DNA of 64,000 nt from Candidatus Parcubacteria bacterium (GTDB lineage: Bacteria > Patescibacteriota > Minisyncoccia > UBA6257 > 2-01-FULL-56-20), in NCBI GenBank assembly GCA_027450205.1, contig DAIDJL010000002.1, positions 205,007 to 269,006 of the forward strand. The letters are read 5' to 3'. The position numbers and the translations under genes were made by a program. Positions 27,744 through 43,138 of this stretch are shown here, one piece after another (the first letter of the stretch is position 1; every line of letters starts with the position of its first letter). Under the pieces are notes generated by a model that saw only the letters and a program-made list of their open reading frames with translations, did no database searches and had not been told where the DNA came from.

Positions 27744-27773
27744 CGAGAGCTCATTTGACACCAAATACCCACT
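27744..27773 (+). promoter_or_regulatory. promoter with embedded CsoR-type operator palindrome (ATACCCACTAGGGGTAT)
   Basis: TTGACA 27744-27749, palindrome in the spacer, TATCAT -10; drives the csoR-like gene. Same architecture at 39104-39133. Confidence 0.6.
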
Positions 27774-27791
27774 AGGGGTATCATATGCTAT

Positions 27792-28061
27792 ATGAACCAG
27801 ATTATTAAGAAAAAAGCTTTGCGGCGCCTCCAGATTGTGAAAGGCCAAATTAAGGGCCTTGAAAAGATGATCGGTGATGAAAAATATTGTATTGATATTA
27901 TCACGCAATCATCTGCAATCAAGCAAGCACTTTCCGGCGTTGAGGGGTTGCTGCTCGAAAATCACCTCGCCACCCACGTAGCGATGCAGATGAAGGCCGG
28001 GCATGGCAAGAAAGCCGCTGATGAAATATTAAAAGTCTATAAATTATCACAACGAAGATAA
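27792..28061 (+). CDS. csoR: CsoR/RcnR-family metal-sensing transcriptional repressor
   Basis: 89 aa; family pattern ...L.RL.R..GQ..G...M......C.D...Q..A...AL......L...H. Confidence 0.75.
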   Translation: MNQIIKKKALRRLQIVKGQIKGLEKMIGDEKYCIDIITQSSAIKQALSGVEGLLLENHLATHVAMQMKAGHGKKAADEILKVYKLSQRR

Positions 28062-28816
28062 TGACAAAAAGAATAATTACCTATATCGGGTTATCGCTTG
28101 CAACATTCTCCGTATTTCTTGTCGTGGGAACGGCGAACGCGCAAATGATGGGAGGATATAACGGATCGTACGGTTCTATGATGGGCGGCTGGACTTACCC
28201 GGGCGCGTCTTCAACGACAATGTCCGCAAGCGACACGCAGGCGATCGCGGACGGTAAGGCGCTATACGGGCAGTTGCAAGCAGGGCAGGCGCAGTGCAGC
28301 CAGCTCACGCAGGATAACTATGATCAGCTCGGCGAATATTTTATGGACCAGATGACGGGATCGGGCCACGCGGCGATGGATTCGATGCTCTCATCCATGA
28401 TGGGCCAGCAGGGTGACACGGCGATGCACATCGCGCTCGGCGAACGATATTCGGGCTGCGATCCGAACGCCGCGCTCCCCGCGGGCGCGATGATGGGTTA
28501 TGGCAATTACGACAACGGAGCTTCGTCGACTCCGTATCAAAATAATTTTTTAAACAACATGATGGGATATGGATACGGCGGGTACGGACCCATGGGGTAT
28601 GGCTACGCGGATCCGCTGGGGTGGATCTTCATGCTCCTTTTTTGGGCACTGATCGTCATCGGCGTCATCGTGCTCATTCGCTGGCTTGGCCACGGCAGGC
28701 ATCGGCACGGATGGCATGAACACGGCCATTCGGCGATGGACGTTCTCAAAGAGCGTTACGCGAAGGGCGAGATCGACAAGAGGGAGTTTGAAGAAAAGAA
28801 AAAAGATCTGGAATAA
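28061..28816 (+). CDS. membrane protein with Met/Gly/Tyr-rich repeats and C-terminal SHOCT domain
   Basis: Repeats MMGGYNGSYGSMMGG, MMGYGNYDNG, MMGYGYGGYGPMGYGYADP, one TM, His-rich HGRHRHGWHEHGH, then SHOCT-like DVLKERYAKGEIDKREFEEKKKDL. Start overlaps csoR stop (TAATG). Confidence 0.6.
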   Translation: MTKRIITYIGLSLATFSVFLVVGTANAQMMGGYNGSYGSMMGGWTYPGASSTTMSASDTQAIADGKALYGQLQAGQAQCSQLTQDNYDQLGEYFMDQMTGSGHAAMDSMLSSMMGQQGDTAMHIALGERYSGCDPNAALPAGAMMGYGNYDNGASSTPYQNNFLNNMMGYGYGGYGPMGYGYADPLGWIFMLLFWALIVIGVIVLIRWLGHGRHRHGWHEHGHSAMDVLKERYAKGEIDKREFEEKKKDLE

Positions 28817-28818
28817 AA

Positions 28819-29234
28819 GCATGAAATCGGCGCTCGCAACCATGGTCATCGTAACGGCTGTTCTCGCCCTTGTGGCGGGCGGCTTTGCGATGGCCACTAT
28901 GGGGGCGGGCAATCATACGAATTGTCTTGCGGCGATCCCGGGAAGTCCGGAGTGCGTGAACGGCATGAGCCCGATCCAGTTCGTGGAGATGCACATCAAC
29001 ACCCTCCTCGGCGCTTCACTGGGCATCGTGGGCTCTCTTGCGTTTTCATTTTTTGCATTGCTCGTGGCATTTATGTGGCTTACGATTTCTGCCGCCACAG
29101 ATCCGTTGTTTATGGTTTCGCGTCGGTTAAGTATTATCAGCAACGCAAGGGCGAGCGGCATTGGTAAACAGCGTCATTGGATTTCCCTCCTCGAAAAGCG
29201 CGATCCGTCTCTGTTGTGCGCTATGAACGCCTAA
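28819..29234 (+). CDS. membrane protein
   Basis: Internal Met start of ORF 28686..29234; 3 TM helices. Confidence 0.35.
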
Positions 29235-29290
29235 GCGAACCAGATTCGCCGCGTCGTTTGTAGCGCCCTAAACCGCAGAAATGCGGTTTT

Positions 29291-29809
29291 TTGGTTCGCA
29301 ATCAATTCACAATTACCATGAACACAAAACCAACGCTGGAAGAATTTCTCAAAAAAATAGCATCAATCAAGGAAAAAGCGGGCGTCGATCTCTCGACGAC
29401 GGAAGATCTGAGCGTCGCCGTCATGAATCTCGTGAGCCTCGAAGAGCACTTTTTCTTTACGGGGGTAAAAATAAATAAAGACGAGTATTTCGATACGGCG
29501 CAAGAGATCAGGGAATTGCGCAAGCAATTCCTCGCTCAGCTTATGCCGGAGAATGAAGGCGAGACGTGGTGCATCGCAAAGCATCTCCTCGCGGCGACCA
29601 TGCGCCTCATCGAGGTCGGGAACAAACTGCAATCGGAAGGAGAAAAGCAGCGGGCGAAGCAAACGTTCGAGGGCGCGTACAAGGTGTATTCGATCTTTTG
29701 GGCGCTGAAATTGAAGCTGGTCACGGGAGGGAAAATAAAAAGGATTGCCAAGGGCAGTCCGCAATTCGAGGATCTCGTCAATAAACTTGCCGCGTGCTGC
29801 GACGAATAG
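29291..29809 (+). CDS. hypothetical cytoplasmic helical protein
   Basis: 172-aa ORF; no recognised domain. Confidence 0.45.
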   Translation: MVRNQFTITMNTKPTLEEFLKKIASIKEKAGVDLSTTEDLSVAVMNLVSLEEHFFFTGVKINKDEYFDTAQEIRELRKQFLAQLMPENEGETWCIAKHLLAATMRLIEVGNKLQSEGEKQRAKQTFEGAYKVYSIFWALKLKLVTGGKIKRIAKGSPQFEDLVNKLAACCDE

Positions 29810-29812
29810 CTC

Positions 29813-30811
29813 ATGAACAATATGGAACACGAACAACATCAGCACGAATCAGAGCCGACAGATAATCTTCCTTCGGCAGCGGTGGCAAAGAGTGACAAAA
29901 AAGATCTGTTTTTGCCGCTCAGCATTCTTGCGTCCGCGCTGCTTATCGCTTCGGCGTTTGTGTATATCGGCAACCAACGGGAGGCGGGAGGACAAGCTGC
30001 CTTTGTGGCGAAAGGGGTTTCGGCCACGACAACGCGAGAAGTAGCATCCGTTTCCGCGCTTCAAGAAAAAGTGATTCCGGCGAACGGCGTGACGCTGCCT
30101 GCACGTTGGGGAGATTTGGGGAAACAGTTAGTTTCTGCGGGTGTGATCGACGAGTCGCAATTTGAGGCGCTCTATGCGCAGCGCGGCGGATTGCCTCCCG
30201 ATATGAGGGCGCTGCTTGGTAATGCAGACAATGGCAATCTCGTCATCACGCCCCAGAATTCAGGCGTTCTCCTGAACCTTTTGTGGGCGCTTGGCTTGGG
30301 GAATAACAACCCGGTTCTCACGAGCGGCCAGATGCAGAATCCGCAATACGGCGGGGCGAAGAACTTCGCCTCGACGGGCGGTTGGACGCTTTCGGTCGGC
30401 GACGCGATGAGCCACTACAGCGCCCATTCGTTCATAACCCTTACCGCCAATCAGCAGGCCCTCGTCGATCGTGTCGCGCAGAACATTTACCGTCCGTGCT
30501 GCGGCAATTCGACCTACTTCCCGGATTGCAATCATGGCATGGCGATGCTGGGACTCCTCGAGCTCATGGCCTCGCAGGGCGTCTCCGAAACGGATATGTA
30601 CAAGGCCGCGCTCACAGTGAACTCCTACTGGTTCCCAGGCACCTACATGACGCTTGCGACCTACTTCCAAAGCCAAGGCGTTGATTGGGGCGCGGTTGAC
30701 CCGAAGACGGTCCTCGGTGCCGCGTATTCAAGCGCCCAGGGATATCAGCAGATAGAGAACAAAATTATCCCGGTGCAGACGCAATCGTCGGGCGGCTGCG
30801 GGGTGCAGTAA
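29813..30811 (+). CDS. membrane-anchored secreted protein ending ...SSGGCGVQ
   Basis: TM anchor LPLSILASALLIASAFVYI; 332 aa; C-terminus GCGVQ shared with the next gene, including the DNA motif ggctgcggggtgca.taa. Confidence 0.5.
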   Translation: MNNMEHEQHQHESEPTDNLPSAAVAKSDKKDLFLPLSILASALLIASAFVYIGNQREAGGQAAFVAKGVSATTTREVASVSALQEKVIPANGVTLPARWGDLGKQLVSAGVIDESQFEALYAQRGGLPPDMRALLGNADNGNLVITPQNSGVLLNLLWALGLGNNNPVLTSGQMQNPQYGGAKNFASTGGWTLSVGDAMSHYSAHSFITLTANQQALVDRVAQNIYRPCCGNSTYFPDCNHGMAMLGLLELMASQGVSETDMYKAALTVNSYWFPGTYMTLATYFQSQGVDWGAVDPKTVLGAAYSSAQGYQQIENKIIPVQTQSSGGCGVQ

Positions 30812-30827
30812 TCGGGAATGAAAAAGC

Positions 30828-31028
30828 ATGAAACCAACCAATGATAATTTCTGGCTCTTCATCAGCATCGCGCTCTTTGTGATGATCGTCGGCACGGCAT
30901 GGGTTTACGCATTCCGGCCGTTCAGCGCGAACGCGGTGACGCAATCACAGGATAGTGCCACTGCATCGTCGCAAGCCCAGACCGCACCCCCATCCTACGG
31001 CCAAAGCAGCGGCTGCGGGGTGCAATAA
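30828..31028 (+). CDS. small membrane protein ending ...SSGCGVQ
   Basis: 66 aa, one TM, same C-terminal GCGVQ. Confidence 0.4.
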   Translation: MKPTNDNFWLFISIALFVMIVGTAWVYAFRPFSANAVTQSQDSATASSQAQTAPPSYGQSSGCGVQ

Positions 31029-31033
31029 CAATT

Positions 31034-31894
31034 ATGGAACTCCTCATCAGCACATCATTAGTAGCAGCATTCGTGGCGGGCGTGGCGGCATTGTTCGCGC
31101 CGTGCTGCGTCACAGTTCTTCTGCCCTCGTACTTCGGGTCAATCTTTGAGACGCGGAGAAAGGTATTCCTCATGACCTTCATCTTCTTCCTCGGCATCCT
31201 GACCGTATTCTTGCCGCTCGGATTAGGATTTTCGTCATTAAGCACCTTCTTTGGACACTATCACCACGAAATCTTTACGATCGTCGGTTTACTGCTCCTC
31301 GCTTTGGGCATCTCGCTCCTTTTCGGGAAGCGATTGCCCATGCCGTCCTCGTGGAAACCAAAGTTTGAAATGAAGGAAAAGGAAACAGCGGCGTCGGTCT
31401 ATGTCCTCGGCATTTTCTCCGGCATCGCGACGACCTGCTGCGCCCCCGTGCTCGCGGGAGCGCTTGCGCTTTCCGTGCTTCCGGGTTCGTTCACGTGGGG
31501 CATTATCTACACCTTGGCTTACGTGCTCGGCATGGTGACGCCGCTCTTCATCTTGGCCACCGTCATTGATCGTACGCATCTCACGAACCGGCTCTTCGAG
31601 GCACGGAAGCCATTTACGTTCAACTTGTTTGGAAAGGAATTCAAGACACGATTCTCCGACCTCTTGGCGGGCGCGACCTTCACTATTATGGGCGTCTTCA
31701 CGCTCATCTGGGCGGCGAACAACCCGATGGGATACTCGGCCACTGCTGTGGACATCAACATCTTCATTACGCAGGCATTGCAGTCCGCAAACCGATTCAT
31801 CGGATGGGTGCCGCAGTTCGCATGGGCGATCGTCATTGTCGGACTTCTCGCGTGGCTTACGGTAATGGCCACAAAACAAAACAAAGAAAATTAA
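31034..31894 (+). CDS. CcdA/DsbD-like transmembrane thiol-disulfide transfer protein
   Basis: Polytopic; Cys pairs inside TM helices (APCCVTVLLP, TTCCAPVLAG) as in the DsbD/CcdA family. Confidence 0.5.
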   Translation: MELLISTSLVAAFVAGVAALFAPCCVTVLLPSYFGSIFETRRKVFLMTFIFFLGILTVFLPLGLGFSSLSTFFGHYHHEIFTIVGLLLLALGISLLFGKRLPMPSSWKPKFEMKEKETAASVYVLGIFSGIATTCCAPVLAGALALSVLPGSFTWGIIYTLAYVLGMVTPLFILATVIDRTHLTNRLFEARKPFTFNLFGKEFKTRFSDLLAGATFTIMGVFTLIWAANNPMGYSATAVDINIFITQALQSANRFIGWVPQFAWAIVIVGLLAWLTVMATKQNKEN

Positions 31895-31913
31895 TCGATA
31901 GAGAAGTAAAAAA

Positions 31914-32540
31914 ATGAAAACATATCAGAAAAAGAACAATACGACAGCAATTGTGGCGATCATCGCTATCGCGGTGTTCGCCATCGGTGGCATCTACATG
32001 CTAAGTCGCGGCAGCGGTGGCCCGCAGACAGGCGGCGACCCCATGCATTCGGGAAGCGCGGCAGCGTCATCGGGATCGCCGAACGATCTTGTCGGCAAGC
32101 CCGCTCCGCAGTTCTCGCTCCAAGACCGGAACGGCACGATCTACACGAACGAAAGCTTGAAAGGAAAGGATGTAGTGCTGTTCTTCAATGAGGGCATCAT
32201 GTGCTATCCGGCATGCTGGAATCAGATGGTGGCGCTCCCGCAGCTCGACAGCTCGAATACCGTCGCACTGTCGGTGGTGATCGATCAGCCAGCGGATTGG
32301 GCCAGCGCAATCCAGAAGATGCCTCAGCTTGCCTCTGCGACGGTGCTCTTTGATACGGACAAGAGCGTATCGAATGAGTACGGCATGCTCACGGTAAATT
32401 CCTCGATGCATTACGGATCGTACCCTGGCCACACATTCGTTCTTATCGACAAGCAAGGCATCGTCCGTTACGTTTTCGATGATCCAAATATGGGCGTCGA
32501 CAACGATAAGGTCGCGAGTGAACTCGCACAGCTGAATTAG
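31914..32540 (+). CDS. thioredoxin-fold thiol:disulfide oxidoreductase (TlpA/ResA/redoxin-like)
   Basis: Signal anchor; VVLFFNEGIMCYPACWNQ with CxxC active site; 208 aa. Confidence 0.65.
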   Translation: MKTYQKKNNTTAIVAIIAIAVFAIGGIYMLSRGSGGPQTGGDPMHSGSAAASSGSPNDLVGKPAPQFSLQDRNGTIYTNESLKGKDVVLFFNEGIMCYPACWNQMVALPQLDSSNTVALSVVIDQPADWASAIQKMPQLASATVLFDTDKSVSNEYGMLTVNSSMHYGSYPGHTFVLIDKQGIVRYVFDDPNMGVDNDKVASELAQLN

Positions 32541-32541
32541 C

Positions 32542-32985
32542 ATGAACCGCACCATCATCACATCGATTGCGAAGGGAGCAGCCGCGACGCTGGTTTTGGT
32601 CGGCGCATATTTCCTGGTCGTTGGCCTTATCTCTGGCGTTGGATTTGCCGCGAGCCAATTCACAAGTTACTGGTACTATCTTGGAAGCCTCGCCGTTGGG
32701 TTCGGTATCCAGATCGGGCTATACAGCTACCTGAAAGCCGCGATCCACGCCAAAGGTCCGAGCGGTAAGATGCTTGCCGTGACGGGGACAACGTCCACGG
32801 GCGCGATGGTCTCCTGCTGCGCCCACTACCTCGTGAACATTTTGCCCGTCTTGGGCGTGAGCGCATTCGCCTCATTTATCGGGGCGTATCAAGTGCAGCT
32901 TTTCTGGGTCGGCATCGCATTCAATCTCGCGGGCATTGCTTACATGATCAGTCGGATCGTGAAATTCAAGAAACAAATTGTATGA
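32542..32985 (+). CDS. membrane protein (4 TM, CC pair)
   Basis: 147-aa hydrophobic ORF, ATGA overlap with upstream stop. Confidence 0.4.
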   Translation: MNRTIITSIAKGAAATLVLVGAYFLVVGLISGVGFAASQFTSYWYYLGSLAVGFGIQIGLYSYLKAAIHAKGPSGKMLAVTGTTSTGAMVSCCAHYLVNILPVLGVSAFASFIGAYQVQLFWVGIAFNLAGIAYMISRIVKFKKQIV

Positions 32986-33455
32986 ATACAAAAAACGCAA
33001 TTCTCATTGGACTTGCTGTTCTCGCGGTCATGTTTTTCCTCTATACCTTGAGCGTTCCGCGAGGCACGCCTACGGAATACGGAGGAACGACAAGCCAAAC
33101 GCAGCAATCGTCCGGCAAGGCATCGGCGCCCTACGGATCGCAAACCAATTCCGAGGGTACGGCGGAAGTCGTCGCGCAACCGCGCGCGCCCGGCACCAGC
33201 ACATGGACGTTCAGCTTCGGCATCGACACACACATGGGCAGCCTCGACATGGATATGACGAAAGTGGCCGTGCTGACCGATGATCGCGGTGACTCGCTTG
33301 CACCCATCGCATGGGATGGCCCTGCTGCCGGAGGGCACCACCGCAACGGTACGCTTACGTTCCCTGCGCCATCGTCCACGCCGAAGACGATAACGCTCAC
33401 GGTGAGCAATGTCGGTGGGGTTGCGACAAGGACGTTCACATGGAATGCGCAATAA
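32982..33455 (+). CDS. secreted protein
   Basis: Signal peptide MNTKNAILIGLAVLAVMFFLY; 157 aa. Confidence 0.45.
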   Translation: MNTKNAILIGLAVLAVMFFLYTLSVPRGTPTEYGGTTSQTQQSSGKASAPYGSQTNSEGTAEVVAQPRAPGTSTWTFSFGIDTHMGSLDMDMTKVAVLTDDRGDSLAPIAWDGPAAGGHHRNGTLTFPAPSSTPKTITLTVSNVGGVATRTFTWNAQ

Positions 33456-33487
33456 AGGCCGAACAAAGAAATTAACCAAGCAAAAAT

Positions 33488-33808
33488 ATGGAAAATCAAA
33501 ATAATAACACTACTCATGACCATGAAAGTGGCCATAGCTCATCAATGATGTGGATGATGATCGCCTGTTGCGCGGTACCGATTATCGCCATCTTGCTTTT
33601 GGGTGGGGGAGCGGCAGCGTTCGGCGGAACAGCACTCCTGCCGCTCATCGCGCTCGTGCTTCTCGCGGCGTGCGTCATCATGATGATGCGGCATCGGAAG
33701 TCGTCGCACAGTGACGCGCCGCATGATAGTCACGTCGTGGATATTGAGCAATCCTCAAAGGCCGAAACTCATGACGATACAAAGCAGGATCATTCCTGTT
33801 GCCACTAG
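33488..33808 (+). CDS. His-rich small membrane protein ending SCCH
   Basis: N-terminal HDHESGHSSS, two TM, C-terminal HSDAPHDSHV...THDDTKQDHSCCH. Confidence 0.4.
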   Translation: MENQNNNTTHDHESGHSSSMMWMMIACCAVPIIAILLLGGGAAAFGGTALLPLIALVLLAACVIMMMRHRKSSHSDAPHDSHVVDIEQSSKAETHDDTKQDHSCCH

Positions 33809-33812
33809 CTTT

Positions 33813-34454
33813 ATGGACAACGCCTACGGCCTCTGGCCACTCGTCATCATCAATTCTGCCATCTTCATCGTATTCGCATTCAGCTTTACGAAGCCGAAAA
33901 CCCCGCGCGACTGGCGCTCGTTCGGAGCGTTTTCGGCATTCATCGTCGCGCTTTTCACGGAGATGTATGGGTTTCCTCTCACGATCTATCTTCTCTCGGG
34001 GTGGCTTACGAAAGCACTGCCGGGCGTGGATCTCTTAAGTCATAATTCCGGCCATCTTCTTGAAGACTTCTTCGGCTGGGGCGGCGATCCCCACTTCGGG
34101 CCGTTCCATCTCTTGAGCTATGTCCTGATCGGCATAGGAGTCTTTCTCTTGATGGATGCATGGACTGTCCTCTACAAAGCGCAGCGTGAACATACGCTTG
34201 CGACCACCGGGCCGTATGCCCGCATCCGCCATCCGCAGTATGCGGCGTTCATCCTCATCATGCTCGGGTTCCTGTTCCAGTGGCCGACGATCCTCACGCT
34301 CGCCATGTTCCCGGTGCTTGTATGGATGTATATCCATCTTGCGCGGACCGAAGAGCGGGAAGCAAAAGAAGTGTTTGGTGTTACATGGGATATCTACGTG
34401 GCGCGAACGCCCGCATTCATTCCTCGGTGGGGGAGAAATAAATCATCGAAATAA
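33813..34454 (+). CDS. isoprenylcysteine carboxyl methyltransferase (ICMT/PEMT) family membrane protein
   Basis: RIRHPQYAAFILIMLGFLFQ...E.E...FG..W..Y pattern of the ICMT family. Start at Met 33813, right after the upstream stop. Confidence 0.65.
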   Translation: MDNAYGLWPLVIINSAIFIVFAFSFTKPKTPRDWRSFGAFSAFIVALFTEMYGFPLTIYLLSGWLTKALPGVDLLSHNSGHLLEDFFGWGGDPHFGPFHLLSYVLIGIGVFLLMDAWTVLYKAQREHTLATTGPYARIRHPQYAAFILIMLGFLFQWPTILTLAMFPVLVWMYIHLARTEEREAKEVFGVTWDIYVARTPAFIPRWGRNKSSK

Positions 34455-34460
34455 AAATCT

Positions 34461-34637
34461 ATGCTCAGAATCTTCAAGAAAAAATGTCCGATTTGCAGGA
34501 TGACGCTCGAAGAAGGGAAGGAATATCCGGAAGGGTTCGGTAAGCGATTCTATTCCGAGAGATGCAAAGATCAATATCGGTTGCTGTTAGATAAACAACA
34601 GCAACCCCGCAGATCCAAAGGCGGCGGATGCTGCTGA
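34461..34637 (+). CDS. small Cys-rich metal-binding-like protein (CPICRM...) ending GGCC
   Basis: 58-aa ORF below the 60-aa track cutoff: MLRIFKKKCPICRMTLEEGKEYPEGFGKRFYSERCKDQYRLL...SKGGGCC. Confidence 0.35.
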   Translation: MLRIFKKKCPICRMTLEEGKEYPEGFGKRFYSERCKDQYRLLLDKQQQPRRSKGGGCC

Positions 34638-34649
34638 CCGCATAAAGGT

Positions 34650-35954: not shown

Positions 35955-35994
35955 TGTTGATCACGAGAGTACATGACGAATAAAAACCGTGATA

Positions 35995-36486
35995 TTATTT
36001 TTTTACGGCGTAAGAGATGACGATCTGGTCATTATCGTGCATCACGGTATTCTCGTAAGTGTCCACCGGACTGCCGTTCACCGTCACGGTGATCGTGTGG
36101 CTCGCATCGACCACGCTGTTGAGAATTTGGTTCTGATTGAATGTTTTGCCCCAGACGGCGAAGAAATCCCCGAGCGTGAAGTCGCGTGCCACCGGGGACT
36201 CGATGTGGATGGTGCCACTGTCGTCGTGAGTGTGGATTGGGTGCATACAGGCCAAACTAATCCCGATATCCGCGGGAATGGTTTGCGTCGCGTTGTTCAC
36301 GACGATCGTGAGATGCGGGTGGATATGGAATCTCGTCAATGGATCGGTCGTACAACTCAATGCCAGTTGCCGCGTCGTGAGCGTGGATGCGGAATGATTG
36401 CCCCAGACTATTAGTCCGACGGCGGCGAGAACGACCCCTCCCGCGATCCACCACCCTGAATATGATTTTTTGTGAGAGTATTTGTT
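35995..36486 (-). CDS. secreted protein with His-rich motif (HIHPHL...CMHPIHTHDDSGTIHIE)
   Basis: Signal peptide after MNKYSHKK start (36486); track ORF extends to 36558. Confidence 0.45.
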   Translation of the reverse strand, partial: NKYSHKKSYSGWWIAGGVVLAAVGLIVWGNHSASTLTTRQLALSCTTDPLTRFHIHPHLTIVVNNATQTIPADIGISLACMHPIHTHDDSGTIHIESPVARDFTLGDFFAVWGKTFNQNQILNSVVDASHTITVTVNGSPVDTYENTVMHDNDQIVISYAVKK

Positions 36487-36496
36487 CATGGTTTTG

Positions 36497-37189
36497 TCAT
36501 CCGCAAATGTCCGATGCATCCCAATATGCAGCAATTTTTTGCGCGTCCCATGTGCCATCGATGATCATTTTTTTGGCGATGCCTTCGTTTGTGAAATAGT
36601 GCCAGCACTTGCAGCAGCAGGGCTTTTCTTTCGAGATCGCATATGCCTGGTCATAGATGGCTTGTTGCGCAGGCGTAAGCGTCGTCGCATTATCGTAGTC
36701 AATCCAATATTTTGCCATCGCGATCGGCGTATGCATCGGGTCGAGCGGGATGTTTGGCGTATCCCTAAATGCCTGGAGCTTCTGCAGGTTCGCGTGATAA
36801 TCGACAGTGTCTTTCATCGCACCACAGCATTGGCCGCCCATAAAGAGGCCGGTCGTGCTTGCGAGGGTCGTAGGACCGGCCGCACAGCTCCCTCCTGTCG
36901 TGGGGTTATTACTGAGCAACCCGTCAACGTTCGGGGCGCAGCTTATGATCTGGCTGTCGAGATCGACGAGTTCCGGATCGACGGGCTTTGTGAGGCTTGC
37001 GCTTTGTTGGACGAAGTTCGCTTTACCCGCCGCCGTGGGAATTTTGTCGTAAGCGGCCTGATCTGCGGCAAGTGCGGTGCTGGCGTTTTTGCCACTTCGG
37101 CTTGTTATGACCCACGCGCCTGCGATTACCGCTACTGCAATAATAGCGATAGGGAGCAGTTTATTCTTTTGTTTTTTAATGAGTTTCAT
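36497..37189 (-). CDS. secreted Cys-rich protein (CCGAM, CCCKCWHY)
   Basis: Start MKLIKKQ at 37189; signal anchor; multiple Cys clusters. Confidence 0.45.
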   Translation of the reverse strand: MKLIKKQKNKLLPIAIIAVAVIAGAWVITSRSGKNASTALAADQAAYDKIPTAAGKANFVQQSASLTKPVDPELVDLDSQIISCAPNVDGLLSNNPTTGGSCAAGPTTLASTTGLFMGGQCCGAMKDTVDYHANLQKLQAFRDTPNIPLDPMHTPIAMAKYWIDYDNATTLTPAQQAIYDQAYAISKEKPCCCKCWHYFTNEGIAKKMIIDGTWDAQKIAAYWDASDICG

Positions 37190-37199
37190 GGTTGGTAAT

Positions 37200-37766
37200 T
37201 TATTTTTCATTTCGATGTTCGACGGGATCGCATACCTGTGGCGATCCGATCCGTTTGGCGACGAGGACAAGAGAAGTGCCGAGCAGGGCGACGCTTAGGA
37301 TGCCGAACTCGCCCCCGTGAAGCGGAAGGAGGGCGATACCGCCCGAGAGTCCGATTGCGGCAAATATGTTCATCAAGACGAATGATCCGCAGGCAGCGCA
37401 CCCTATCCCGAAAACGCCGCTCACCATGCCGCCCACGCTCGCCGCAACAGCTCCCTGCCGCCACGCGAACGCCCGCTCCTTCATGTAATACGCAATCAAG
37501 GCGATATCGATTCCCAAAAGAATGGCGCTCGCGATCGTTGACGCGGCGGAAAGCGCGCTGAAATTCGTTCCGATGCTCTCCGTAAGGCCGACGAGAAGCT
37601 GCAGCTTGATTGCGAACGGAATCGATTGCGGCATCATCTGTACCACGACGCCGAGATTCGGCAGCCATGTCGCGAACAAGAATGCGCCAACCGCGACGAT
37701 GACGGCAAGCGCGACGTATCGCGGCTTCGTAAATACTTCTTTTATTCCTCGTAACAACACGGACAT
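37200..37766 (-). CDS. membrane protein with intramembrane GCAACGS Cys pair
   Basis: 5-6 TM; adjacent to the DsbA-like gene; possible disulfide partner. Confidence 0.45.
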   Translation of the reverse strand: MSVLLRGIKEVFTKPRYVALAVIVAVGAFLFATWLPNLGVVVQMMPQSIPFAIKLQLLVGLTESIGTNFSALSAASTIASAILLGIDIALIAYYMKERAFAWRQGAVAASVGGMVSGVFGIGCAACGSFVLMNIFAAIGLSGGIALLPLHGGEFGILSVALLGTSLVLVAKRIGSPQVCDPVEHRNEK

Positions 37767-37769
37767 AGC

Positions 37770-38600
37770 TTATGATTTCTGCAATGACGCATCAATGACT
37801 GCCTTGAACGCGGAGTATGGCTGGGCGCCCACAACCTGCGTGCTGTTGATGAACACGGTCGGCGTCGAATCCACGCCTGCCGCGGCGGCGTCCGCTTTTT
37901 CCTGCGCCACTTGGCTTGCAAATTTATTGCTGTCGATACAGCTCGTGAATTGGGGGACGTTGAGGCCGACATGGCTTGCAAGTTTCAAGAAAAGTGTCCG
38001 GTTAAAGAACCCGTCGTCTTCGCTGCCTCCCTTCTGGACTTCTGCGACTTTCCCCGCATAGAGCGCGTCGTGGTACGGCCAAAGCTTGTTCTGATCTTCC
38101 GCACACTCTGCCGCCTGCGCCGCCGCCGTTGATTCGGGCCCGAGGAATGCTAAATTCCTGAATACCATCCTCACTTTGCCGGTATTTACGTAATTGGCGA
38201 CAATCTGCGGTTGGGTTTGAGAAAAGAATTCACCGCAGAACGGGCACTGGTAGTCGCCGTATTCGATGAGCGTTACGGGAGCGTTCGCGTTCCCTAAGAT
38301 ACTGTCATGCGAAGTAAGTTGCATGACTTGCGTGGCGGAGACGGATGGCTGCGGTTGCGCGTTCGGAACGGTAGCCCCCGCTGTTCCACTGGGAGCTGGT
38401 GCTCCCCCGTAAAGCGTAGCGAAGGTAATTGCACCGCCGATCATGACTGCCGCGACAAGGATTGAGATCGGCAGGAAGCGATCTTTCTTTTGCGCTTGCT
38501 GTGGTTGAAGCGGTTCATCTGGTTGAGGGTGATGAGGTTCGTGTTCCATGGTTAGAATTAATACATTAATTTTTATAGGAAAAAATCTAAAACGCCGCAA
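37770..38600 (-). CDS. DsbA-family thiol:disulfide oxidoreductase (membrane-anchored)
   Basis: TM anchor; YGDYQCPFCGEFF CxxC active site; 276 aa. Confidence 0.7.
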   Translation of the reverse strand: MRRFRFFPIKINVLILTMEHEPHHPQPDEPLQPQQAQKKDRFLPISILVAAVMIGGAITFATLYGGAPAPSGTAGATVPNAQPQPSVSATQVMQLTSHDSILGNANAPVTLIEYGDYQCPFCGEFFSQTQPQIVANYVNTGKVRMVFRNLAFLGPESTAAAQAAECAEDQNKLWPYHDALYAGKVAEVQKGGSEDDGFFNRTLFLKLASHVGLNVPQFTSCIDSNKFASQVAQEKADAAAAGVDSTPTVFINSTQVVGAQPYSAFKAVIDASLQKS

Positions 38601-38620
38601 TCAAAATGTGGCGGTAGACA

Positions 38621-39028
38621 TTAGAAACCAAAAAAGGGACGGTAGCACTTCGAATGAAGAATGCCTCTGCGGAATGCCAAACGGAGTGGGTCGAAAATAG
38701 AAAAAGCGAAACGGTTCTTGATGACTGAAAGCGCTGTTCCCGATAAACTGTTTTTGAGAAAACGTTCCAATATAGAAATTACGAGCGAAAGAACAAGTAG
38801 TAAAAATAGAAGGGCGATGGTGGGTGTGGTAGCCGTGAACAGCGATCCCCACGCATTGATGTGCTGCATGATGTTCATACTGCAAAGGGAGCCTGTGTCA
38901 TTCACCAAGGGGCACTGGGCCATGCTGTTGTGGGCGTCGGTCATCGCTATCGCCTGCGTACAGATAAACGGTGCAACCAAAAACAGCACAAGTATCAGAA
39001 TGGTAAAGATGGGCTTCGATAGCTGCAT
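38621..39028 (-). CDS. small membrane protein
   Basis: 135 aa, 3 TM. Confidence 0.35.
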   Translation of the reverse strand: MQLSKPIFTILILVLFLVAPFICTQAIAMTDAHNSMAQCPLVNDTGSLCSMNIMQHINAWGSLFTATTPTIALLFLLLVLSLVISILERFLKNSLSGTALSVIKNRFAFSIFDPLRLAFRRGILHSKCYRPFFGF

Positions 39029-39103
39029 GGATAAATTTTAACAGAATCGGGGGCAATTTTGAACCTTTATTGCGGTAGGTAAATAGCGCTGTCCACAGGA
39101 TCA

Positions 39104-39133
39104 TTTGACAAGAAATACCCTAGGGGGGTATAC
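39104..39133 (+). promoter_or_regulatory. second promoter with CsoR-type operator palindrome (ATACCCTAGGGGGGTAT)
   Basis: TTGACA 39104-39109, palindrome in spacer, TATACT 39128-39133, ATG 39140 (near-leaderless). Confidence 0.6.
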
Positions 39134-39139
39134 TGGCAA

Positions 39140-39851
39140 TATGATCACCTCCGCATACTACGCCTGGTTCTTCTGGAGCTTGCTCCTGCTCGTCGTTTGG
39201 GCGGTCATTTACCTGTTCCTTAAGACCAAAGCAAGCAAGCGGGAGATGCTCATTGTAAGCGCGTGGACATCGCTGCTCGGTCTCACCGAACCGATCTTCG
39301 TGCCCCGCTATTGGAATCCGCCGTCGCTCTTTGGCCTTGCATATCGCACCCACTTCGATCTTGAAAGCTTCATCTTCTCATTCGCGATCGGCGGCATTGC
39401 AGTCGTGCTCTACGAACTGTTCTTCTCGTATCGTCCCGATGCGATGGGCGGCATGGAGCGGCACCACGCGCGGCACCGGTATCATCTGTGGGCGCTCCTC
39501 TCGGCCCCGGTCGTCTTCGCAGCATTACTCCTTATCGCTCCGATCAATCCCATCTACAGCGCGTTCATCGCGATGATGGTCGGCGGCTTCGCCACCTGGT
39601 ATTGCCGCCCCGACCTCAAAAAGAAAATGATCGCGAGCGCGTTCCTCTTCCTCGGACTGTACTTCCTCTACTTCCTCACACTCATTGCCGCCTATCCCGG
39701 CTACGTCGAACGGGTGTGGAATTTGTCCGTGATCTCCGGCATTCTCATCGCGGGCGTACCGCTCGAGGAACTGATGTTCGCCTTCGGCCTCGGATTCTAC
39801 TGGTCGAGCGTGTACGAGCACGTCGGATGGCATAAATTGACGAAGGGATAA
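39140..39851 (+). CDS. polytopic membrane protein, first gene of operator-controlled operon
   Basis: Start MITSAYYAWFFW directly after the -10 (track ORF starts 39105); about 7 TM. Confidence 0.5.
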
Positions 39852-39856
39852 ATCAC

Positions 39857-40060
39857 GTGGATCACACTATTAAGAAAATCTACTGTTGCCCTGAATGTGG
39901 CTTGCACTACGAGGATGAGAAGCTCGCGAAAAAGTGTGAAGCGTGGTGCGGGGAACACAAAAGCTGCAATCTGGAAATTACGAGCCACGCAATCGAAAAC
40001 AAGGCCGAAAACAAAGTTGAAAATAATAATCAAAAATCCAATGAACAACGAATCAAATAA
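39857..40060 (+). CDS. small zinc-ribbon-like protein
   Basis: CCPECG...CEAWCGEHKSC; 67 aa. Confidence 0.35.
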   Translation: MDHTIKKIYCCPECGLHYEDEKLAKKCEAWCGEHKSCNLEITSHAIENKAENKVENNNQKSNEQRIK

Positions 40061-40205
40061 AACGATTTACACGTGCCCGATGCATCCGGATGTGAAACAG
40101 GATGCGCCGGGGAGGTGTCCAAAATGCGGCATGAATCTGGTAGCGGTGGATGCGGGTACGACAGAAAGTGGACATGCGCACAAATCTTCAGGCGGTTGCT
40201 GTTAA
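40041..40205 (+). CDS. small metal-binding protein (CPMHPD...CPKCGMNLV module) ending GGCC
   Basis: [37 protein letters not shown]...SSGGCC; paralogous to the N-terminus of the downstream ATPase. Track ORF 39897..40205 is an upstream extension. Confidence 0.5.
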
Positions 40206-40212
40206 CGATACA

Positions 40213-42315
40213 ATGAATAACGAATCCCAAAAACTTTATACCTGCCCCATGGATCCGGATGTCATTTCCGACCATCCCGGGGAATGCCCGAAGTGCGGCA
40301 TGAATCTGGTTCCCATGGACATGGGCGGCCATGATGGTAGTGATGCGCACGCCGGTCATGGCGGCGCCGAGCAGGATTTCAAGCGCCGCTTCTGGATCAC
40401 GCTTCCTTTCGTGCTGGTTGCCATGGCGCTCTCGCCGAACATCCAGCTATGGTTTCATTTTGAATGGACGGTTCCCGGCGGGAGCCTGTGGCTCTTCCTG
40501 ATCGGCGCCTTCGTGTTTTCCTACGGCGGCTGGCCGTTCTTCAAGGCGGCCAAGGGCGAACTGACGCATAAGAATCCTGCCATGATGACGCTCGTCGCTT
40601 TTGCCATCACCGTAGCATTTGCATTCTCCGTGGCCGCCACGTTCTTTTTCCCCGGATCATCACTCTACTGGGAGATGGCGACACTGATCTCCGTTTTCCT
40701 GCTCGGCCACTGGCTTGAGATGCGGGCGGTGCGCGGCGCGACCGGCGCTCTTTCGGAACTGGCGAAACTCATTCCGCCCTCCGCGCACCTCGCAAAAGAC
40801 GGCCAGCTTACCGACGTGCAGACTAGCCAATTGATGATCGGCGACAGGGTATTGGTAAAACCCGGCGAGAAGGTTCCGGTGGACGGCAGGGTTGTGGACG
40901 GTGAAAGTTCGGTGAGTGAAGCGATGCTCACTGGCGAATCGCGCCCGATCGGCAAAAAGGCGGGCGACGAGGTTGTGGGCGGATCGCTCAATCAGGACGG
41001 ATCGCTCACGGTCGAAGTGGCGAAGACCGGGGCGGATACGGCCATCGCTCAGATCATGAAACTCGTGCGCGAGGCACAGGGTTCCAAGCCGAACGTCCAG
41101 CATCTCGCGGATCGCGCGGCATCGGTGCTCTTTTATGTTGCCGTTGCGGCGGGTCTGATTTCGTTCGTGGTCTGGTATTTTGTGTTCCCGCAGGGGGCGA
41201 TCTTCGCCGCCACCGTGGCCGTTGCCGCGATCGTCATCGCCTGTCCGCACGCGCTCGGCCTTGCGATCCCCACGGTAACGTCCATCACGACGACCTTGGG
41301 CGCGAAGAACGGCATTTTAATCAAAGATATGAAGGGTTTGGAGATTGCGCGGAAACTTAACTACGTGGTATTCGACAAGACCGGCACGCTCACCAAGGGT
41401 GAATTCGGGGTTGTCGATATCGCCGCGTCCGGAACGTCCGATGTCCGCGATGAGAATGAACTGCTCGCGCTCGCCGCAGCCGTTGATGTGCCGTCGCAAC
41501 ATTCGATCGCGCAGGGCATCGTGAAGGCCGCCAAAGAAAAGAACCTCCGCATAGAGGAGGTCAAGGGCTTCAAATCGTATCCGGGCAAAGGGGTTTCCGG
41601 CATGGTCGGCGACAAAGAGGTTTTGATTGGCAACAAGGTGCTCATGCAGGAGCAAAATGTGGCAGGCGTAATGGACGTCGTGAGCCGCAGCGCCGAGGTG
41701 GGCACCCCGAACTACGTGGCAGTGAACGGAAAGTTTGCGGGGACGATCTTTCTCGCGGATATAGTGCGGGATGAATCCAAGGAAACCATCGCACGCTTGC
41801 GTGCGATGGGCATCAAGACGGCGATGCTCACGGGCGACACGCAGGACGTCGCCGATGCCGTCGGCCGTGAACTCGGCATCGACACGGTGTTCGCGCATGT
41901 ATTACCCGAAGACAAGGTCAACAAGGTGAAGGAGCTCCAGTATGGCGGCAATATCGTCGCCATGGTGGGCGACGGCGTGAACGACGCCGCATCACTCACC
42001 CAGGCGCACGTCGGTATCGCGATCGGGGCGGGCACAGACGTGGCGGTGGCATCGGCGGACATTGTCCTGATGAAGAGCAACCCGCTCGACGTGGCGAAGA
42101 CGATTACCCTCAGTCGCAAGACGAACCGCAAGATGGTCCAGAACCTCGCGTGGGCGACGGGGTACAACGTGTTCGCCATCCCTATCGCCGCGGGCGTGCT
42201 CTATCCTTCATTCGGCATCCTCCTCCCTCCTGCGTGGGCGGCGATCCTCATGAGCACATCGTCGGTGATCGTGGTCGGGAACGCGCTGCTCTTGAGAAAA
42301 GAAAAACTGGGATAG
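40213..42315 (+). CDS. copB: copper-exporting P1B-type ATPase, CPH subtype (CopB-like) with N-terminal CPMDPD...CPKCGMNLV domain
   Basis: [24 protein letters not shown], 8 TM; start [15 protein letters not shown] at 40213 (track 40150). Confidence 0.9.
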
Positions 42316-42363
42316 AAATATCACCCCAAAGGCCGATAAACATCATACATACAAAACAAAATC

Positions 42364-42561
42364 ATGAAACCGATTTGGAAAATATTAGCGTGGCTGTTTG
42401 CCGCGTGCGGCATCCTCGCATACCTCTCCGCGTGGGGCAATATATGGTTTGGATGGAACCTGTGGGGTTCGCCAGCGCAGGCGCTCTTTAGCGATGCAAC
42501 CGCCACAGGGATATTCGCCTTATTCTTCCTCGTGTGGGGCAAGTGGGGCGGCGAGCGGTAA
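42364..42561 (+). CDS. small membrane protein
   Basis: 65 aa, two TM. Confidence 0.3.
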   Translation: MKPIWKILAWLFAACGILAYLSAWGNIWFGWNLWGSPAQALFSDATATGIFALFFLVWGKWGGER

Positions 42562-42637: not shown

Positions 42638-43099
42638 CTATTTGTGGAGCAGATGCCCTGCATTATATGTCTCCCAGCTTTCACCTAAAAGAAGCGCAAC
42701 GAAGACGAGGATGTAAATGATTGCCACGCCGATGTCAGTCGATCCCGCCGCATACGGCCCGCCGAAGCCTTCAGCGGTTGACCAGATCACGAACGCCATG
42801 GCAATGCCGCCGTACATGGCGTATCGGCTTAAGACGCCGGAGATGAGGCTGAGCGCGATCGCGGTTTCCGCGACGGCGACGACGATGGCAAAGAAATGAG
42901 GATCGACGTTCACAACGTTGATCCAAAAATTGATCCATCCGGCAATGATCGGCGACTGGTTCTGCGCCCCCGTTTCCAGATAGCCGACAAAGTTGGAGAT
43001 GAAGTCGGGACTCCATTTGAAATACACGTCAATGAACCACACGAATCCGAAAACGATCCGCAAGATGCCGAACCCCTTACTTTTTGAGTTTTCCGTCAT
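42638..43099 (-). CDS. DoxX-family membrane protein
   Basis: Start MTENSKSKGFGILRIVFGFVWFIDVYFKW; 4 TM typical of DoxX. Confidence 0.55.
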   Translation of the reverse strand: MTENSKSKGFGILRIVFGFVWFIDVYFKWSPDFISNFVGYLETGAQNQSPIIAGWINFWINVVNVDPHFFAIVVAVAETAIALSLISGVLSRYAMYGGIAMAFVIWSTAEGFGGPYAAGSTDIGVAIIYILVFVALLLGESWETYNAGHLLHK

Positions 43100-43138
43100 G
43101 CGTTCATTATAACGTGATTTTTCATCCGTGTACCGACG

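Follow-up and report, generated by a model that had tools for sequence, protein, structure and literature searches.

Predicted CsoR-type operators at the csoR gene and the copper-ATPase operon of a Patescibacterial gene island

Two operons and their promoters

The window, that is, the whole 64-kb stretch of Patescibacterial DNA analysed here, carries a csoR operon (operon 1) and a copper-ATPase operon (operon 2) with the following features:

27755..27784, + strand: promoter 1 with predicted CsoR operator (-35 TTGACA, 27755-27760; palindrome ATACCCACTAGGGGTAT, 27765-27781; -10 TATCAT, 27779-27784)
27792..28061, + strand: csoR, 89-aa CsoR/RcnR-family repressor (PF02583, 8e-23), predicted leaderless
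28061..28816, + strand: Met/His-rich, two-TM protein with C-terminal SHOCT domain (251 aa with 20 Met and 8 His)
28821..29234, + strand: g137, small two-TM protein with a C-x9-C plus His module, third gene of the csoR operon
29270..29295, + strand: predicted intrinsic terminator, AAACCGCA-GAAA-TGCGGTTT followed by a T-run
39105..39134, + strand: promoter 2 with predicted CsoR operator (-35 TTGACA, 39105-39110; palindrome ATACCCTAGGGGGGTAT, 39115-39131; -10 TATACT, 39129-39134)
39141..39851, + strand: membrane protein with lycopene-cyclase (LycCyc) domain (PF18916, 3e-17; 5-6 TM), predicted leaderless and opening operon 2
39857..40060, + strand: g67, small Cys-rich cytosolic protein (CCPEC...C...C...C)
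40041..40205, + strand: stand-alone HMBD protein (PF19335, 3e-15; ...CPKCGMNLV...SSGGCC)
40213..42315, + strand: P1B copper ATPase with N-terminal HMBD and CPH TM motif (ACPHALGLA); longest ORF from 40150
42364..42561, + strand: g65, small two-TM protein after the ATPase, likewise in L003 and L009

The SHOCT start and the csoR stop share 1 nt, and the distances within operon 1 range from this overlap to 4 nt. Its last product, g137, ends with the motif W-I-S-L-L-E-x-x-D-P-S and has no match in Pfam or NCBIfam. In operon 2, the spacing among the four leading genes varies between an overlap of 20 nt and a gap of 7 nt, with g65 following the ATPase after a 48-nt gap. The LycCyc gene is always beside the ATPase in L003, L009, L020, L081, L124, L133, L139 and L152, the stand-alone HMBD protein is a duplicate of the ATPase N-terminus, and the ATPase itself scores 590 bits against TIGR01511 (cut-off, 397).

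Both promoters consist of TTGACA, 18 nt and TATnnT with a perfect ATACCC-N5-GGGTAT palindrome, and the likeness between the two regions is restricted to the stretch from the -35 through the ATG (27792 for csoR and 39141 for the LycCyc gene, rather than 39140 as given in an earlier note on this DNA). That note had equated the palindrome with the promoter spacer; the layout was confirmed, but the palindrome is 17 nt long, begins 4 nt past the -35 and extends 3 nt into the -10, and is thus not identical with the spacer. At both sites the ATG lies 6-7 nt past the -10, which predicts a leaderless transcript in each case. The exact box occurs twice in the 64-kb window, whereas 100 shuffles gave 0.00 on average; allowing up to 2 mismatches added only 2 weak matches (17193 and 25741; 1.25 expected), and in a promoter scan of 26.5-44.5 kb the two sites were the only promoter-like matches at 11/12. 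The proposed likeness to known CsoR operators was borne out: both sites contain TAC-N9-GTA, as do experimentally defined type-2 operators, including the Streptomyces consensus ATATACCCCTNAGGGGTATAT, in which TAC-N9-GTA is essential (PMC3902906), and the operators of Corynebacterium glutamicum, ATACCCCnnnGGGGTAT, and Bradyrhizobium liaoningense, TATACCCnnnnnGGGTATA (PMC5057107). Comparison at the sequence level thus supports the palindromes as CsoR-type operators overlapping sigma-70-type promoters of the csoR gene and the copper-ATPase operon.

The same arrangement is widespread in the phylum. A phylogenetic footprint of 80 Patescibacteria loci (1.23 Mb) yielded 90 box sites with at most 1 mismatch, approximately 78 of which are directly upstream of csoR with TTGAC(A) adjoining, and the consensus ATACCCCnnnGGGGTATaaT. 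Nearly all of these loci have the promoter, the box and a predicted leaderless ATG at csoR, and in 49 of 66 cases the ATG follows the box by 9-12 nt. Loci in which copper genes stand apart from csoR have extra boxes, either before the ATPase (L003, L004, L050 and L081) or, in L002, in front of a DUF302 gene and of a Met-rich protein. Counterparts of site 2, at the same gene, precede LycCyc in L002 (20234) and L139, and homologues of the SHOCT protein have their own CsoR box in L002, L048 and L070. Of 81 loci, 70 have a Cu-ATPase no more than 10 kb from csoR, most often 1-5 nt behind it, and the neighbouring genes also include a multicopper oxidase, HMA-DsbD_2, DUF305 and DUF411.

Genes between the operons and the extent of the regulon

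Seventeen genes separate the two operons:

29318..35954, + strand: operator-free block of twelve genes, among them g163 (ending CCDE), g332 (ending GCGVQ; CcmH-like fold), g66, CcdA-like, TlpA/Redoxin-like (CYPAC), g147, g157, g106, ICMT-like, g58 and C39-like peptidase
35995..39028, - strand: five-gene operon m135 (paralogue of g137), DsbA-like (CPFC), m188, m257 and m187
39035..39063, - strand: promoter of this operon (TTCAAA, 17 nt, TGtTAAAAT), with the ATG 6 nt downstream; predicted leaderless

Profile matches across the region (PF02583, SHOCT, DsbD_TM, AhpC-TSA/Redoxin, ICMT, DSBA/Thioredoxin_4, two HMBD and the P1B ATPase with ACPHALGLA) upheld the gene identities listed in the earlier note, and synteny of the DsbA gene with m188 and m187 recurs in relatives. 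The evidence supports a predicted syntenic island of extracytoplasmic thiol and copper handling that recurs across Patescibacteria; the accompanying claim that the two promoters control all of 27744-42315 is not visibly supported. For the thiol genes, 'periplasmic', as they had been called, is doubtful wording, because this phylum is not known to have an outer membrane.

The putative terminator, a GC stem followed by T6, lies exactly between g137 and g163 (dG -16.1 kcal/mol, z -3.4). Its stem is kept in five relatives (among them L002, L003, L004 and L105) while the loop varies, a signature of a functional hairpin, and we predict that rho-independent termination at 29270-29295 closes the csoR operon after csoR, the SHOCT gene and g137. 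Further downstream, the interval 29300-39100 holds no box with up to 2 mismatches, and the twelve-gene block appears tied to csoR by conserved synteny only. The promoter of the minus-strand operon, an extended -10 type, is approximately 50 nt from the operator of site 2 and does not overlap it, which places its -35 too far away for simple occlusion. These features speak against a single CsoR regulon covering 27744-42315, in which operon 1 would run through the hairpin to 35954 and the DsbA cluster would be co-regulated from 39029-39140, and we regard this arrangement as possible but rather unlikely. In its favour are other genomes of the candidate phyla radiation (CPR), where CcdA, TlpA-like and ICMT genes are found inside csoR-ATPase operons and, together with g58, LycCyc and g332, stand on the same strand between a csoR promoter with operator and the ATPase, with gaps down to 0-7 nt (L044; further cases in L098/L112, L166, L152, L143, L128, L190 and L051). 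Among 64 loci for which csoR was called, 31 have a thiol-redox family in the run of same-strand genes that follows it, L053 has a box with one mismatch before F014-CcdA-TlpA-ICMT-g332, and no convincing separate promoter was found before g163. Read-through of the terminator could lengthen operon 1 to 35954, and the genes between the operons show no sign of control by the two operators, except possibly by this route.

The direct targets predicted from sequence within the 64-kb window are therefore csoR, the SHOCT protein, g137, the LycCyc protein, g67, the HMBD protein, the CPH Cu-ATPase and g65. Of the regulon proposed earlier, these two operons stand, whereas the CcdA/TlpA/ICMT block (behind a terminator and operator-free) and the DsbA operon (read from the other strand by a promoter of its own) probably fall outside it.

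The repressor and its signal

The regulator, whose gene was called csoR-like in the earlier note, does belong to the PF02583 family, but its sensor motif is x-C33-H58-H62 rather than the canonical C-H-C. In an alignment to 2hh7, 4m1p and 3aai, C33, H58 and H62 match C36, H61 and C65 of Mycobacterium tuberculosis (Mtb) and C41, H66 and H70 of Thermus. The His at the Z position, in place of Cys, counts against a copper CsoR. Nevertheless, the second-shell residues Y32 and E78 are invariant, and a Tyr-Cys plus Glu second shell is typical of Cu(I) sensors (PMC11672702). Among the 80 loci, 57 have Y-C-H-H and 20 have Y-C-H-C, with the same box and pump. As part of the overall best explanation, the protein is very probably a copper-sensing CsoR of the x-C-H-H variant (Thermus thermophilus type).

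Both operons might instead answer to Ni/Co (RcnR/InrS-like), persulfide (CstR-like) or aldehyde (FrmR-like), as the C-H-H portion equals that of RcnR (H-C-H-H), NCBIfam matches to RicR, FrmR and RcnR are all sub-threshold, and Thermus CsoR is promiscuous in vitro. We consider this improbable, given that the N-terminal His/Pro (W position) needed by RcnR, InrS and FrmR is missing and not conserved, there is no second Cys of the kind that CstR needs, the pump under control belongs to the TIGR01511 copper ATPases, and C-H-H and C-H-C orthologues are interchangeable before CPC and CPH pumps and adjoin multicopper oxidase, DUF305, DUF411 and HMA genes.

An unbiased metagenome scan for TTGACA-N4-box returned 120 loci, 89 of which have an adjoining CsoR-family gene (63 with csoR directly downstream and 26 divergent); the downstream gene is a Cu-ATPase in 4 and belongs to an island family in 3. 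The identical box with TTGACA also occurs in metagenomes at CstR-like (x-C-x-C) regulators adjoining MvhD-like and thioredoxin genes, and because CstR-like persulfide sensors of other lineages share it, the effector cannot be read from the DNA site by itself. That the palindromes are chance repeats, bidirectional terminators or MerR/CueR-type activator sites on a long spacer is barely credible: a terminator scan marks 39131-39115 as a weak minus-strand hairpin with T-run and the 18-nt spacer is slightly long, but zero boxes are expected by chance, box placement relative to -35, -10 and ATG is kept across approximately 150 independent loci beside csoR, the region has no MerR-family gene, and MerR sites have 19-20-nt spacers and other sequences.

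Proposed switch and related systems

Promoter architecture, its conservation, family membership and gene linkage are directly observed; that CsoR binds, that copper induces and that initiation is leaderless are the steps that we infer. Very probably, the x-C-H-H CsoR represses two leaderless operons through 17-bp boxes and Cu(I) relieves this repression. By analogy with characterised family members, CsoR tetramers would, when copper is absent, occupy ATACCC-N5-GGGTAT in two nearly identical promoters of the sigma-70 type, where it spans approximately -27 to -11 counted from the predicted transcription start, and block RNA polymerase, whereas Cu(I), by bridging Cys33 in one subunit to the adjacent subunit's His58 and His62, would cause release of the DNA. 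The first derepressed transcript would then encode CsoR, the Met/His-rich SHOCT protein and g137 and stop at the conserved terminator, and the second would encode the LycCyc protein, g67, the HMBD protein (probably the pump's chaperone), the CPH P1B copper-export ATPase and g65.

The closest known systems are the CsoR-copZA systems of Streptomyces lividans, C. glutamicum, Bacillus subtilis and B. liaoningense, which share the PF02583 repressor, the type 2 operator (A)TACCC(C)-N-(G)GGGTA(T) with TAC-N9-GTA, repression by promoter overlap, and boxes at both csoR and a P1B copper-ATPase operon, a distribution that points to autoregulation of the repressor. They differ in having Cys as the Z ligand, a CPC pump and a CopZ (HMA) chaperone; here these are His, a CPH pump and a stand-alone HMBD module, leaderless transcription is predicted, and the host is a Patescibacterium. 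The copper-repressor switch itself is ordinary and well understood; it sits here in a little-studied phylum (Patescibacteria, candidate phyla radiation), surrounded by many uncharacterised Cys-rich envelope proteins. Thermus thermophilus CsoR (PDB 3AAI), also linked to a copper ATPase (PMC11672702), has the same x-C-H-H site, with its H70 aligning with H62, although identity is moderate (46 bits) and its His5, a fourth ligand for some authors, has no counterpart here.

Salmonella and Caulobacter Scs proteins (DsbD-like ScsB, DsbA-like ScsC and TlpA-like ScsD) carry out copper-induced envelope thiol repair (PMC10907172). The island resembles Scs in that a membrane reductase of the DsbD family, a thioredoxin-fold protein anchored in the membrane and a DsbA-like protein cluster with copper-tolerance genes, but its electron transporter is a short one of the CcdA type whose Cys are doubled (APCC, TCCAP), its thioredoxin-fold protein carries C-x3-C, the thiol genes lack an operator or other sign of copper induction, and the organism is probably monoderm. 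For the CcdA, CcmG/ResA/TlpA and CcmH chain of cytochrome c maturation, neither sequence-level similarity nor a Foldseek match was found; g332 differs from CcmH in its length of approximately 330 aa, extra domains and Gly-Cys tail, and CPR bacteria are not generally known to have c-type cytochromes.

The pump combines the CPH motif of CopB/P1B-3 ATPases, in the fourth-helix region, with the N-terminal YTCPMxPD...CPKCGM module (PF19335) of the LpCopA/SilP/CueA 'TCPMHPEIR' clade. Unlike classical CopB, it has no His-rich N-terminus, and unlike both groups, it is encoded just downstream of a free-standing HMBD copy. Its TM7/TM8 motifs (N-x6-YN-x4-P; M-x2-SS) resemble the signatures of P1B-1.

Predicted CsoR operators at two promoters of the copper island

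A perfect inverted repeat, ATACCC-N5-GGGTAT (hereafter the box), lies inside the spacer of two promoters of the window, one preceding csoR (site 1) and the other preceding the operon of a copper ATPase (site 2). At both sites, the box starts 4 nt past the -35 hexamer, and its last three bases are also the first three of the -10 hexamer. The features concerned are listed below (g and m denote plus- and minus-strand window genes without a family name).

27755-27784, plus strand: promoter 1 with box; TTGACA, 18 nt, TATCAT; inverted repeat at 27765-27781
27792-28061, plus strand: csoR, encoding an 89-aa PF02583 protein
27792-29234, plus strand: operon 1 (3 genes); csoR, a Met/His-rich SHOCT protein with two transmembrane segments (TM), g137
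29318-29809 and 29813-30811, plus strand: gene for a CC-tailed protein, followed by g332
35995-39028, minus strand: DsbA-like operon of five genes with its own extended -10 promoter
39105-39134, plus strand: promoter 2 with box; TTGACA, 18 nt, TATACT; inverted repeat at 39115-39131
39141-42561, plus strand: operon 2 (5 genes); PF18916 lycopene-cyclase-domain membrane protein (LycCyc), g67, stand-alone HMBD protein, ATPase, g65

In the interval 26.5-44.5 kb, the two sites score highest as sigma-70-type promoters (11/12 each). The 64-kb window contains the exact palindrome twice, and none of 100 dinucleotide-preserving shuffles contains it; when up to 2 mismatches were allowed, two more weak matches appeared elsewhere in the window, which is the chance level. 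The regions of the two sites display no relatedness outside the stretch from -35 to ATG. The earlier note's claim of two promoters overlapped by a CsoR-type palindrome is thus confirmed by sequence, promoter scoring and shuffles, although two details required correction: the palindrome, which had been equated with the 18-nt spacer, is a perfect repeat within the spacer but does not fill it and runs into the -10, and the first gene of operon 2 begins at 39141, one base from the previously proposed 39140. Because the ATG codons of csoR (27792) and of operon 2 stand 6-7 nt past the -10, both transcripts should start at or beside the start codon and are predicted to be leaderless. Other good promoters of the window (39035-39028, the 51996 region and others) also place the ATG 6 nt past the -10.

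The likeness to CsoR operators of the TACCC-n-GGGTA type holds for both sites, which share the TAC-N9-GTA form of experimentally defined operators. The dyads, TAC-CCACTAGGG-GTA and TAC-CCTAGGGGG-GTA, with their G/C tracts, are those of a type-2 operator, which is present at the promoter of csoR itself as well as at the Cu-efflux promoter. The same dyad with G/C tracts is found in the Streptomyces CsoR operator (ATATACCCCTNAGGGGTATAT), where it is essential for binding (PMC3902906); the CsoR operators of C. glutamicum (ATACCCCnnnGGGGTAT) and B. liaoningense (TATACCCnnnnnGGGTATA) have also been defined (PMC5057107).

Comparison of 80 Patescibacteria (candidate phyla radiation, CPR) loci with a csoR orthologue, taken from one genome per species and totalling 1.23 Mb, revealed in nearly all of them TTGAC(A), 1-4 nt and ATACCCCnnnGGGGTAT, with the final TAT opening a TATaaT -10 hexamer; the ATG lies 9-12 nt past the box in 49 of 66 scorable cases. 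Approximately 78 of the 90 sites with at most 1 mismatch in the 1.23 Mb are csoR promoters, and the remaining boxes precede copper genes where these are split from csoR, namely the ATPase (L003, L004, L050, and L081), a DUF302 gene with a Met/Gly/Tyr-rich membrane protein (L002), a SHOCT gene (L070), and the LycCyc-type gene that the window also has (L002). In 9 of 81 CPR loci (L006, L035, L036, L038, L048, L062, L069, L073, and L077), genes for large serine recombinases (Resolvase, Recombinase and Zn_ribbon_recom domains) lie less than 10 kb from csoR, and copper modules may travel on mobile elements.

An unbiased metagenome scan for TTGACA-N4-ATACCC-N5-GGGTAT yielded at least 120 loci. Among the 120 matches listed, csoR lies directly downstream in 63, a CsoR-family gene lies divergently within 200 nt in 26, a Cu-ATPase is downstream in 4 and island families in 3; the locus was too short for its context to be judged in 6, and the remaining 18 had no assignment. 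Given these contexts, the matches listed do not place the palindrome at many unrelated promoters; such a spread had been named in the earlier note as fatal to its proposal. Most of the divergent cases listed belong to another lineage, in which the regulator is CstR-like (D-C...N-Y-M-K-I-C) and the gene downstream encodes an MvhD/FlpD-like protein, a thioredoxin or a CoA-disulfide-reductase-like enzyme. The box between a divergent CstR-like regulator and an MvhD/FlpD-like gene was seen in L085, L091, L094, L107, L114, L125, L132, L145, L169, L172, and others; this arrangement is probably a sulfur/persulfide regulon of that lineage. Since the box also serves CstR-like regulators, it names the protein family rather than the effector. 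Collectively, the statistics, the identity with tested operators and the phylogenetic footprinting strongly support the prediction that the box is a CsoR operator.

The repressor and its likely signal

The only PF02583 protein of the window matches PF02583/DUF156, a repressor domain folded as a four-helix bundle, with an E-value of 8e-23 (81 bits; cut-off, 22.8), and its best relatives in the PDB are CsoR structures (4m1p, 2hh7, 3aai, and 4adz). Every close homologue is from the Patescibacteria (Parcubacteria/Paceibacterota, Liptonbacteria, Adlerbacteria, Saccharibacteria, and related groups), which, together with a LOOT RNA, assigns the window to this phylum. When 34 orthologues were aligned, C33, H58, H62, Y32, E78, and Q39 showed no variation. 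In alignments with solved structures, the C33/H58/H62 set corresponds to C36/H61/C65, the Cu(I) ligands of Mycobacterium tuberculosis CsoR, and to C41/H66/H70 in its Thermus thermophilus counterpart; H62 thus stands where the M. tuberculosis C65 and the Geobacillus Cys align, which makes the window protein an x-C-H-H CsoR of the Thermus subgroup rather than a canonical x-C-H-C one. The second-shell Tyr (Y32, before the Cys) and Glu (E78), which couple Cu(I) binding to DNA release (PMC11672702), are both in place.

Effectors other than copper are considered unlikely. The N-terminal His/Pro (W position) characteristic of RcnR, InrS, and FrmR is absent from its start (MNQIIKKK), and positions 2-5 vary across the alignment, with neither His nor Pro in any sequence. 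CstR proteins have an x-C-x-C dithiol pair, no His at the Y position and a sulfur-metabolism neighbourhood, whereas the window protein has a single Cys (C33), H58, and copper genes as neighbours. Members of the x-C-H-H group are considered probable Cu(I) sensors with incompletely proven specificity (review, PMC11672702), and Thermus CsoR is described as promiscuous in vitro in work cited in PMC5057107. The sensor motif is Y-C-H-H in 57 of the 80 genomic loci, Y-C-H-C in 20 and Y-C-H-Q in 1, with the same box and the same pump throughout; this exchange of His and Cys as third ligand among orthologues of a single group argues that the two are interchangeable in a copper sensor. The neighbours of csoR in CPR include genes for multicopper oxidase, HMA-DsbD_2, DUF305, and DUF411 proteins. 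Based on the ligand and second-shell residues, the regulated pump and the neighbours, copper is the likely signal of the window CsoR.

Reach of the predicted operators and the thiol-redox island

We regarded as direct targets the genes located on the same strand downstream of a box-bearing promoter with no terminator in between, which include the three genes of operon 1 and the five of operon 2. In operon 1, the csoR stop and the start of the SHOCT gene (product of 251 aa with 20 Met and 8 His) overlap, and g137 begins 4 nt past the SHOCT gene. Located 35 nt 3' of g137 is AAACCGCA-GAAA-TGCGGTTT followed by a T-run, a hairpin of -16.1 kcal/mol (z = -3.4); the same stem with a changed loop is found at the same place in L002, L003, L004, and L105, as the sole such element of each locus. 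We read this hairpin as a functional terminator. Twelve genes (29318-35954) lie behind it and are preceded by no box within two mismatches. The DsbA-like operon is on the opposite strand and has its own promoter (TTCAAA, 17 nt, TGtTAAAAT, with the ATG 6 nt on), the -35 of which is approximately 50 nt from the operator, rendering simple occlusion by CsoR unlikely. A search for weaker operators (up to 2 mismatches, N5-N9 spacing) before g163 or this minus-strand operon found none. The single regulon spanning 27744-42315 envisaged in the earlier note is therefore too wide for this genome, given the terminator after g137 and the opposite-strand DsbA operon.

The accompanying idea of a combined copper and thiol-redox system survives as a recurrent island, but no operator (up to two mismatches) was seen before the thiol genes in the window. 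The window gene set recurs around csoR, in shuffled order, in many CPR genomes. Most often, the ATPase gene begins 1-5 nt past csoR; in other genomes, csoR and the ATPase are separated by CcdA-like, TlpA-like, ICMT-like, g58-like, LycCyc, and g332 genes, all on one strand, with gaps down to 0-7 nt (L044; also L098/L112, L166, L152, L143, L128, and L190). Among 64 loci with a called csoR, the same-strand run after it includes the ATPase in 43 and at least one thiol-redox family in 31. The window proteins match DsbD_TM (6e-12), AhpC-TSA/Redoxin (1e-14), and Thioredoxin_4/DSBA (2e-35), and their clustering with csoR and the ATPase is recurrent. Such clustering of DsbD-family, TlpA-like, and DsbA-like proteins with copper genes resembles, in genes and synteny, the copper-induced Scs system (PMC10907172), a known analogue of the link between copper export and extracytoplasmic thiols. 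Given the recurring synteny, comparative data give good support to a functional tie between copper export and the chemistry of extracytoplasmic thiols.

The CcdA-like protein (31034-31894) has doubled cysteines in both half-sites (APCC and TCCAP), and the TlpA/Redoxin-like protein (31914-32540) carries a conserved C-x3-C (MCYPAC) in place of CxxC. On the minus strand, m188 (37200-37766) encodes a protein with five TM that has a CAAC motif and ends in a region with a conserved Cys. Most loci with a DsbA-like gene also contain m188 (L002, L013, L016, L017, L031, L038, and L054), which is a candidate DsbB/VKOR-like redox partner.

The pump, its accessory proteins and a wider reading

The ATPase of operon 2, which probably starts at 40213, scores 590 bits against TIGR01511 (cut-off 397), has E1-E2_ATPase and Hydrolase domains, and carries ACPHALGLA (CPH) and FDKTGTLT motifs, as expected of a copper-exporting P1B-1/P1B-3 pump. 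Of its earlier designation as a CPH-type CopB ATPase, the CPH motif and the copper-ATPase assignment are upheld, but it is not a classical P1B-3 CopB: its N-terminus is an HMBD (PF19335, 1.3e-12) and is not His-rich. ATPases adjoining csoR in L002-L081 are of CPC (27), CPH (26), and CPD (3) types, with the same regulator and box. The order of operon 2 genes behind the same box is also found in L139. Between the small Cys-rich protein g67 and the pump, the operon encodes a stand-alone HMBD protein of 54 aa (real start 40041), which shares with the pump N-terminus the opening MNNES(N/Q)K.(I/L)YTCPM.PDV; modules of the TCPMHPEIR type are known from LpCopA, SilP, and CueA (PMC6387184). Since this relation mirrors that of CopZ to the HMA domains of CopA, the small protein may, by analogy, be a copper chaperone for the pump.

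Several accessory families are without recognised relatives: g137, g163, g332, g147, g157, g106, m187, m257, m188, and m135 had no match in Pfam, NCBIfam, or the PDB (phmmer). The products of g137 and m135 are paralogues that share an N-terminal module (TM, C-x9-10-C, H-I-x-x-W/Y), detected by hhalign (96% probability, E = 2.7e-9, N-terminal 62 columns) with no match by BLASTP, and both, like family F014, are found with csoR and the ATPase more often than most other families. An unannotated CPR family of very large size includes g332 (more than 7,500 clusters, typically 53-60% identity); PCCGN...FPDCNHG and a C-terminal Gly-Gly-Cys are invariant in it, and no match was obtained with Foldseek against the PDB, with Pfam for 37 members, or with a profile search of the PDB. 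The gene upstream of g332 nearly always encodes a protein with a CC tail (...CCDE, ...CCKNW, or ...CCDK), as in the window and in L022, L052, L063, L034, and L037, which suggests a fixed functional pair. CaaX-type processing, considered because of ...CGVQ tails and the ICMT-like gene, was rejected: 18 g332 homologues have the Cys at -3 or -4 (tails SGCGV, SGCGI, and SCSVQ) and further copies of the SGCG[VI] unit stand inside the protein, so that a metal-binding tail fits better than a processing signal.

The window switch is of a well-known kind, its logic being the textbook one in which a CsoR box serves both autoregulation and the derepression of a copper pump. The case adds a promoter/operator model for CPR and a pointer to copper-linked envelope proteins. 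The CsoR logic now extends, apparently unchanged at the DNA level, to CPR, for which, to our knowledge, hardly any transcription factor has been paired with its operator. Literature searches for patescibacterial CsoR and for leaderless CPR mRNAs returned nothing substantive. The model (TTGACA, 18 nt, TATaaT, ATG 6-7 nt on, leaderless) is testable in these hard-to-culture organisms, and leaderless initiation may be common in the source genome. The conserved, unannotated Cys-rich envelope proteins, g332 included, form a compact set of copper-handling candidates. A bolder reading, which we consider doubtful, is that a copper module switched by CsoR(C-H-H) and transcribed without leaders occurs throughout the Patescibacteria, with mostly undescribed accessory families and a thiol chain perhaps derived from cytochrome c maturation. 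Under such a scheme, the free-standing HMBD would replace CopZ as the chaperone, the accessories would be the Cys-His mini-membrane proteins g137/m135/F014 and the CC-tailed proteins paired with g332, and a CcdA to TlpA-like to CcmH-like (g332) thiol-reduction chain, borrowed from cytochrome c maturation, would keep extracytoplasmic cysteines, or copper itself, reduced under copper stress in organisms without cytochromes c.

Genes for DoxX, PAP2, and DUF2127 proteins follow the ATPase operon (42638-44100). DUF2127 and DoxX genes also lie beside csoR in L008 (divergent from the box), L045, L003, and L066, suggesting that the island may reach to approximately 44100. Further downstream, at 45955-46067, lies a LOOT RNA (RF03000, 70.7 bits), an RNA motif without known function.
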